From Rickettsiales bacterium (lineage in GTDB: Bacteria > Pseudomonadota > Alphaproteobacteria > Rs-D84): a stretch of 64,000 nt of DNA. Position numbers and translations under genes: made by a program. The notes beneath the pieces were generated by a model that saw nothing but the letters and a program-made list of their open reading frames with translations, made no database searches and was not told the origin of the DNA. Below, piece by piece: positions 22,406 to 22,453 of this stretch. Each line of letters opens with the position of its first letter. Positions within the stretch are counted from its first letter, which is position 1. Location: positions 19,137-83,136 of the forward strand of contig JAISCX010000029.1 of assembly GCA_031265235.1 (NCBI GenBank). Direction: 5' to 3'.

Positions 22406-22453
22406 AGAGAGAGAGAGAGAGAGAGAGAGAGAGAGAGAGAGAGAGAGAGAGAG
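22406..22453. repeat. (AG)24 dinucleotide microsatellite
   Basis: Perfect 48-nt AG tract about 100 bp upstream of the ATG at 22555. It produces the artefactual ERER/SLSL ORFs on both strands. Confidence 0.95.

Follow-up and report, generated by a model that had tools for sequence, protein, structure and literature searches.

A perfect (AG)24 tract ahead of a secreted-protein/LamG operon in a termite-gut Rickettsiales bacterium: a plausible volume-control contingency locus

Long uninterrupted simple repeats are hypermutable by slipped-strand mispairing, and contingency loci built on them are well known. CT repeats underlie the phase variation of outer-membrane-protein genes in Helicobacter pylori, and long perfect non-coding repeats of Mycobacterium leprae behave as neutral variable-number markers; we are aware of no case of repeat-based phase variation described for Rickettsiales. 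An (AG)12 repeat is linked to phase variation of a Type III mod gene in Mycoplasma mycoides subsp. capri (PMC3498834). The (AG)n repeats of the 'vampire pathogen' paper (PMC4516964) are runs of (AG)3-5 and have no bearing on a tract of 24 units. Repeats located in promoters of surface structures, which vary by slipped-strand mispairing, are exemplified by the (TA)n of Haemophilus influenzae hifA/hifB and the poly-G of Neisseria meningitidis porA, while in N. meningitidis nadA a (TAAA)n repeat, placed 5′ of the core promoter, alters how regulator sites are spaced or phased (PMC3899988). The 7-bp repeats of H. influenzae hmwA occur in 9-28 units, and more units result in less mRNA (PMC2424069). 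In Moraxella catarrhalis, uspA2 is preceded by (AGAT)13-18, located 132 bp 5′ of the ORF, with effects of about 3-fold (PMC7302503).

The repeat described here belongs to a 64-kb stretch of DNA (the window) from the metagenome-assembled genome (MAG) of a termite-gut Rickettsiales bacterium, where it constitutes a sensible candidate for a locus of this kind. A first-pass annotation had pointed to a perfect (AG)24 tract between tRNA-Arg and the ATG at 22555, about 100 nt upstream of the latter. Direct reading of the sequence and Tandem Repeats Finder agreed in all this: the 48 bp are 100% matched, with 0 indels, the first of them lies 251 nt 3′ of tRNA-Arg(ACG), and the distance from the end of the tract to the ATG is 101 nt. 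The tract is thus an uninterrupted, non-coding simple repeat, located in the sole intergenic region that precedes the operon formed by the two genes downstream (Table 1). Its supposed rarity was also borne out. In a census of perfect simple repeats it was the sole long one of the window, the second-longest dinucleotide run being (CG)8, with all other simple repeats at or below 16 bp and homopolymers at or below 8 nt. In 2.9 million viral contigs there were 73 stretches of (AG)n with at least 24 units, many of which belonged to giant contigs or lay at the end of a contig. A length of 24 units is far beyond chance. The hypermutability attributed to the tract would be expected from 24 perfect units and from what is established about slipped-strand mispairing, and any rate of slippage at this position is deduced from the same grounds. 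Concerning the (CG)8 run, it is at 6207-6222, inside the coding region of a miaA-like gene (tRNA dimethylallyltransferase), where it encodes RARARAR; a one-unit slip would frameshift this housekeeping gene.

Table 1. Features of the intergenic region and operon (window coordinates), and of the homologous loci (named in the first column)
Feature	Coordinates	Strand	Evidence or remarks
tRNA-Arg (anticodon ACG), left edge of the 400-bp intergenic region	22078-22154	+	ARAGORN; Rfam tRNA 67.9 bits
Promoter-like TTCACA-17-TAACAT	22179-22207	+	Position-weight score 10.1; upstream of tract
Promoter-like TTCAAA-17-TGnTAGAAT	22244-22272	+	Position-weight score 11.7; upstream of tract
Terminator-like hairpin followed by GGUUUUU	22330-22359	+	Fold of 22326-22366: -11.6 kcal/mol, z = -2.2
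Promoter-like TTTGCA-16-TAAAAT, closest upstream of tract	22357-22384	+	Consensus scan; score 9.7
(AG)24/(CT)24 microsatellite, homopurine-homopyrimidine mirror repeat	22406-22453	.	Sequence, repeat finder, repeat census
AGGAG arising from the tract 3′ end; 7-codon TTG mini-ORF downstream (22462-22485)	22452-22485	+	Sequence, translation
Weak promoter-like TTGTCC-15-TAAATT, only candidate 3′ of tract	22462-22488	+	Score 7.8; 15-nt spacer suboptimal
Strong hairpin with 3′ UUUAAUU, 12 nt 5′ of ATG	22505-22543	+	Terminator scan; RNA fold
136-aa Sec-type signal-peptide protein, operon gene 1 (LBK26_03305)	22555-22965	+	ORF
353-aa IPT/TIG + LamG protein, operon gene 2	22975-24036	+	Pfam TIG 3e-8, Laminin_G_3 7e-10
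Homologous pair in L001			After amiC
Homologous pair in L006/L007			After acyltransferase gene
Homologous pair in L008			Small gene visible only at its end
Homologous pair in L088			Small gene directly upstream of LamG gene
Poly-C(10) in L006 (JGI 3300042643, Ga0466704_529012), identical in L007 (Logan SRR14710922)	5603-5612 (L006)		Repeat census

A tract of this kind could also arise as an assembly artefact or as a chimeric join via low-complexity reads, for instance from microsatellites of the host or of protists. This would agree with the tract being known from one short-read MAG contig, and with the frequent occurrence of (AG)n at contig ends in metagenome assemblies. However, the tract is internal to its contig; the sequence to either side is bacterial, and both flanks are ordinary tRNA-to-gene intergenic DNA. 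The tetranucleotide compositions of the 10 kb to its left and the 10 kb to its right correlate with r = 0.92, and since composition is continuous across the tract there is no sign of a chimeric join. In addition, 48 bp is less than the large assembly k-mers that the names of related contigs (k119/k141) suggest. An artefact is accordingly the least credible of the explanations considered, with a very small probability. Sequences from the same species were sought in protein, metagenome and genome collections, where none was found beyond the source contig: exact-protein look-ups gave no second copy of either operon protein, each of the two proteins formed, at 90% identity, a cluster of one sequence from a single contig, the search of metagenome contigs with the left-flank DNA gave 0 matches, and a profile-based metagenome scan returned only LamG proteins of 25-31% identity from unrelated environments.

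Concerning the relation of the tract to a promoter, candidates were obtained with a sigma-70-like consensus scan and a position-weight scan, the consensus matches being of ordinary strength. All the better promoter-like sites are upstream of the tract, which therefore lies probably in a transcribed leader of about 165 nt. The candidate closest to the tract would set a transcription start near 22391, so placing (AG)24 at about +15 to +62 of that leader. Sites with scores like that of this candidate occur about once per 800 nt of the window, and being so common they are to be taken as leads rather than as mapped promoters. A less likely arrangement is that transcription would start from the weak candidate 3′ of the tract, in which case (AG)24 would abut a weak -35 element.

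The annotation had interpreted the tract as a candidate switch, in which its length could set promoter spacing or the structure of the 5′-UTR, in resemblance to dinucleotide-repeat promoter switches of other host-adapted bacteria. The classical -35/-10 form of promoter spacing (hifA/B, porA type) is impossible here, because the tract alone takes up 48 bp, while the spacer needs about 16-18 bp, and no pair of hexamers brackets the tract functionally. A frameshift switch was also discarded. For n = 20-28 units, the frames that come out of the tract run into stops at 22470, 22483 and 22556, and as all three are closed before or at the ATG, none of them fuses to the secreted-protein gene. The switch interpretation is thus lost in its classical -35/-10 form, and what speaks for it in a wider sense is the presence of a perfect, non-coding, promoter-proximal tract, together with a second repeat found in a homologous operon (see below).

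The position of the tract, as a 48-bp array outside the core promoter candidates and ending 101 nt from the ORF, is that of the rheostat class of repeats, and its probable location in a transcribed leader favours graded regulation as seen with uspA2 (AGAT)n or with the hmwA 7-bp repeats. It seems reasonable to interpret, though tentatively and with a likelihood that stays just short of one half, that the tract acts as a leader or upstream rheostat, that is, as a volume-control contingency locus that tunes the output of the operon in a graded way. Slipped-strand mispairing would alter the length of the tract in 2-bp steps and at high frequency, and the length would in turn set the level of operon expression by degrees, heritably and reversibly. 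The effect could be exerted on promoter escape or elongation through a tract whose purine sense strand would be prone to R-loops or triplexes; alternatively, the length and stability of the leader could be altered. Stable RNA-DNA hybrids and triplexes are favoured where the sense strand is rich in purines, and tracts of this type can reduce expression to an extent that depends on their length. On the other hand, the tract is predicted to be unstructured, and hence a change of 2 nt might do little. Even in a species with proven phase variation, a (GTTC)n upstream repeat had an effect of only 1.2-1.4-fold on expression (PMC7302503).

The predicted folding of the leader RNA shows (AG)24 as single-stranded, with just its last bases (GAGGAGU) joining a small hairpin (22451-22492; -13.0 kcal/mol, z = -2.8) that encloses the AGGAG and the TTG mini-ORF. 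So, the role in 5′-UTR structure formerly proposed for the tract is disfavoured, as an unpaired tract would have little share in that structure. Further downstream, the hairpin at 22505-22536 was predicted with -19.9 kcal/mol (z = -5.3), and 0 of 200 shuffled sequences were equally stable; with its U-run, it is a candidate for either a leader structure or an attenuator-like terminator. The weaker hairpin on the other side of the tract (22330-22359) may possibly mark the end of tRNA or upstream transcripts. The latter two hairpins, each with its U-run, flank both the tract and the promoter-like site at 22357-22384. This, together with the single-stranded state predicted for the tract, would be compatible with a short transcript in its own right (about 150 nt), or with an attenuator leader, driven from that site and delimited by the two terminator-like hairpins, in which the purine tract would act as RNA, for instance by offering a platform to an RNA-binding protein. 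Against this interpretation, terminator-like sites are no commoner than in shuffled sequences (2 found versus 1.8 expected), efficient termination at the second hairpin would leave the operon without a promoter of its own, and the region is unconserved in related loci. Moreover, with the covariance models of Rfam run over the region only the tRNA matched, apart from a spurious miRNA match with E = 0.97 (threshold E <= 1), which leaves no match to a known family of riboswitch, small RNA or leader. A short transcript or attenuator leader of this type is considered highly improbable.

The strong hairpin just 5′ of an ATG without a Shine-Dalgarno (SD) sequence, and the analysis of frames for n = 20-28, provide the geometry required by a different mechanism, namely a three-state translational-coupling switch. 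An upstream ORF starting with ATG at 22263, 22293 or 22365 would be read through the tract, and the length of the latter, modulo 3 units, would pick the stop at 22470, that at 22483 or the TGA at 22556-22558. Only the last one, reached with n = 20, 23 or 26 (2 mod 3), shares bases with the start codon of the secreted-protein gene, as ATGA. Ribosomes arriving there would melt the hairpin at 22505-22536 and set the operon on, so that the assembled n = 24 would represent an 'off/low' state. Were this true, and taken with the repeat of the homologous operon, it would be the first described simple-repeat contingency locus of Rickettsiales, with an undescribed coupling mechanism. Nevertheless, an open frame across the 101-nt spacer is within chance (it arises in 11% of shuffles), the upstream ORF lacks a convincing ribosome-binding site, and one of the terminator-like hairpins lies inside it. 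Among the 34 long genes of the window, ATGA contexts are found at the start of 17, while an SD core is recognisable in only 10, the remaining 24 being SD-less. Most genes of this genome seem to be initiated without SD, and the lack of an SD at the ATG at 22555 was for this reason discarded as evidence of coupling. Altogether, the coupling switch is judged quite unlikely.

Concerning the operon downstream of the tract, its genes are separated by 9 nt. They had been described as a pair encoding a secreted protein and an IPT-LamG protein, and this holds for the domains of the latter and for the signal peptide of the small protein. With regard to secretion of the pair as such, a signal peptide was sought in the LamG protein and in three orthologues, and was absent in all of them. 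The small protein begins with MNTGKLFTAIFGAMVLAAAGNAHA followed by AP, which has the look of a Sec signal peptide as judged by eye, and it matched nothing in Pfam or PHROG. A secreted-type target, indicated here by that signal peptide and by the IPT/TIG-LamG domains, is typical of contingency loci, although it does not strictly define them. The small protein is a mosaic: its N-terminal half is unalignable or hypervariable among relatives, and its C-terminal half is conserved. A relative from locus L088 (P0013, 214-630) is 81% identical to it over only the C-terminal 43% (about 58 residues). Such a mosaic divergence is as expected for, and would fit, an exposed protein under diversifying pressure. 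A distant member of the family (P0016, in L122) has a Tat-type signal and the motifs TSKSYVD, YPTTGAV and LASPAFTGTPT, which we take to be phage-tail-fibre-like. The AlphaFold2 model of the small protein was unusable (mean pLDDT 38).

The orthologues of the LamG protein, with 48-50% identity, come from MAGs of termite-gut Rickettsiales. A phage origin of the LamG gene was rejected, as the matches in viral contigs were just to generic LamG_3 (25-31% identity, with one segment at 40%) and the PHROG match was marginal. The LamG proteins (the product of 22975-24036 and the orthologues P0002 and P0003) have in common a C-terminal tail of short repeats with an aromatic end (...FISGRKIF, ...WLGGKRVY, ...WLAGVKIW), which could constitute a signal for non-Sec export or for anchoring.

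The pair formed by the small-protein and LamG genes recurs in four other loci, with a gap of at most 20 nt or with overlap (Table 1). The tight linkage of the two genes within differing neighbourhoods indicates that they form a conserved two-gene operon. A methyltransferase gene of L006 was tried as a synteny anchor and discarded as a non-orthologue. In L006, which belongs to another Rickettsiales MAG, the 5′ end of the homologous operon contains a C10 tract, located between a start of the form AAGGAG-N6-ATG and the signal peptide, and preceded by the near-consensus promoter TTGACA-18-TACAAT (position-weight score 13.5). From the ATG codons at 5570 and 5597 of L006, the reading frame of the signal peptide and mature protein is entered only if the tract is C9 or C12. 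With C10, TTG 5574 is the only start in frame, and with C8 or C11 none of the three is. So, by its sequence, this is the classical layout of a homopolymer contingency locus, and with the C10 of the assembly the operon would seem to be in an off phase or to use an alternate start. The L006 and L007 sequences are identical, so no polymorphism was seen there.

In about 97 kb of DNA from Rickettsiales MAGs (the window, L001 and L006), (AG)24 and C10 are the only two non-coding long simple repeats, and each of them lies no more than about 130 nt from where a gene of the small-protein family starts. A rough post-hoc estimate makes their co-location by chance unlikely, of the order of 1e-3 even when intergenic DNA alone is counted; the link with C10 is itself a post-hoc association that involves one other genome. 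The volume-knob interpretation of (AG)24 gains credibility from the relative, in which this place is occupied by an unstable repeat of another kind.

These comparisons bear also on the possibility that (AG)24 is a neutral microsatellite, produced by slippage in long, weakly constrained intergenic DNA, which would be polymorphic with no effect downstream. The 400-bp intergenic region is not conserved in any related locus, and the flanks of the tract showed no similarity to any of them, so there is no conserved leader. Of the five homologous operons considered, three (L001, L088 and L122) have no repeat upstream, and (AG)24 itself is predicted as unpaired and outside every structure. Intergenic tandem-repeat polymorphism is well known in Rickettsiales: it occurs in Ehrlichia ruminantium, and Wolbachia reportedly has variable-number tandem-repeat markers in intergenic DNA. 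Neutrality, the main rival of the rheostat interpretation, is nevertheless the less likely of the two, albeit with a probability that deserves attention. The absence of other long simple repeats from the window argues against a general tendency to indiscriminate microsatellite growth, and the equivalent position of the L006 operon is occupied by a different repeat. Furthermore, long repeat tracts tend towards contraction unless maintained.

The fact that the gene pair is found in differing neighbourhoods across genomes could also be in line with a role of the tract in DNA structure. Intramolecular triplexes (H-DNA) need homopurine-homopyrimidine mirror repeats, and the structural propensity of such tracts has been described (PMC7015867). 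The tract at 22406-22453 is a mirror repeat of this type, perfect over 48 bp, and by means of H-DNA it might act, independently of slippage, as a barrier between the tRNA gene and the operon, as an insulator or as a recombination hotspot. No rearrangement breakpoint and no repeated flanking sequence were detected, though, and the probability of such a role is rated as slight. The possibility of an island integrated at tRNA-Arg was rejected: a second copy of the 3′ end of this tRNA was sought across the window and none was found, which means that no att-type island boundary was detected.

Several other features of the window are described here for their own sake. A 774-aa ORF (30590-32914, minus strand), 8 kb downstream of tRNA-Arg, has no Pfam match and a weak PHROG match to DNA primase (1.8e-6); it may be the remnant of a mobile element. 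The 28-nt palindrome AAAATCCGCCGTCCGGCGGATTTTTTTA occurs twice in identical form (16918-16945 and 25499-25526), with variants at 36493, 37486, 42372 and 59337. These palindromes look like bidirectional intrinsic terminators with the common stem motif AAAATCCGC...GCGGATTTTT. Just 5′ of the methyltransferase gene and tRNA-Arg there are two genes for cysteine-rich signal-peptide proteins without Pfam match (17370-20162 and 20244-20981), the first of which encodes a low-complexity N-terminal region rich in Ala, Thr and Arg. A trimeric autotransporter adhesin with YadA anchor is encoded at 45518-47215, with degenerate stalk repeats of 30/60/90-nt periodicity at 45788-46306, and is likely another variable surface protein.

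The relatives of the operon proteins come, like the window, from termite-gut MAGs. Besides the operon, the window encodes a CcrM-type DNA methyltransferase, the YadA-type trimeric autotransporter, ankyrin-repeat proteins and many signal-peptide proteins, a content that fits a host-associated alphaproteobacterium. Termite-gut Rickettsiales are probably associated with host cells or with protists. If the tract tunes the operon, these bacteria would use mutational bet-hedging, a strategy known until now chiefly from mucosal pathogens and mycoplasmas, on a module formed by a secreted protein and a LamG protein. The presence of (AG)24 and C10 on the same operon in two lineages would then be a small natural experiment in the convergent evolution of contingency loci, and the convergent repeats would mark an uncharacterised gene pair as important for the interaction with the environment or the host. 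If the tract is neutral, it would still be a useful strain-typing marker for an uncultured organism.

When the locus is compared with the known systems, the mod (AG)12 repeat and the CT repeats of H. pylori share the motif and the host-adapted character of the bacteria, but they are inside ORFs and act by frameshift, while between (AG)24 and the ATG all three frames are closed. The poly-C of L006 fits this coding-region frameshift class, unlike (AG)24. The tracts of hifA/hifB and porA are likewise dinucleotide or homopolymer repeats in a promoter region, but differ from the 48-bp (AG)24 by their location between the -35 and -10 elements, as part of a spacer of 16-18 bp. The likeness to nadA would hold if the weak promoter at 22462-22488 were the real one; nadA requires flanking IHF and NadR sites, whereas no such sites or regulators were identified at (AG)24. 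With the markers of M. leprae and Wolbachia, the tract has in common that it is a long perfect repeat in the non-coding DNA of a host-restricted bacterium, but those genomes carry many such repeats and this window only one. In hmw1A and hmw2A, the rheostat is a long array that separates promoter elements from the ATG in an adhesin operon (PMC2424069), with the differences that the unit is 7 bp and that multiple transcription starts have been mapped in these genes. In uspA2 the unit is a tetranucleotide, both the polymorphism and the effect on expression are experimental, and the organism and target are unrelated to those considered here. In that system the repeat acts at the transcript level on a surface protein, in a graded rather than on/off manner (PMC7302503), and (AG)24 resembles it in being a purine-rich repeat of about 50-70 bp, located about 100-130 bp 5′ of the ORF and outside the core promoter.
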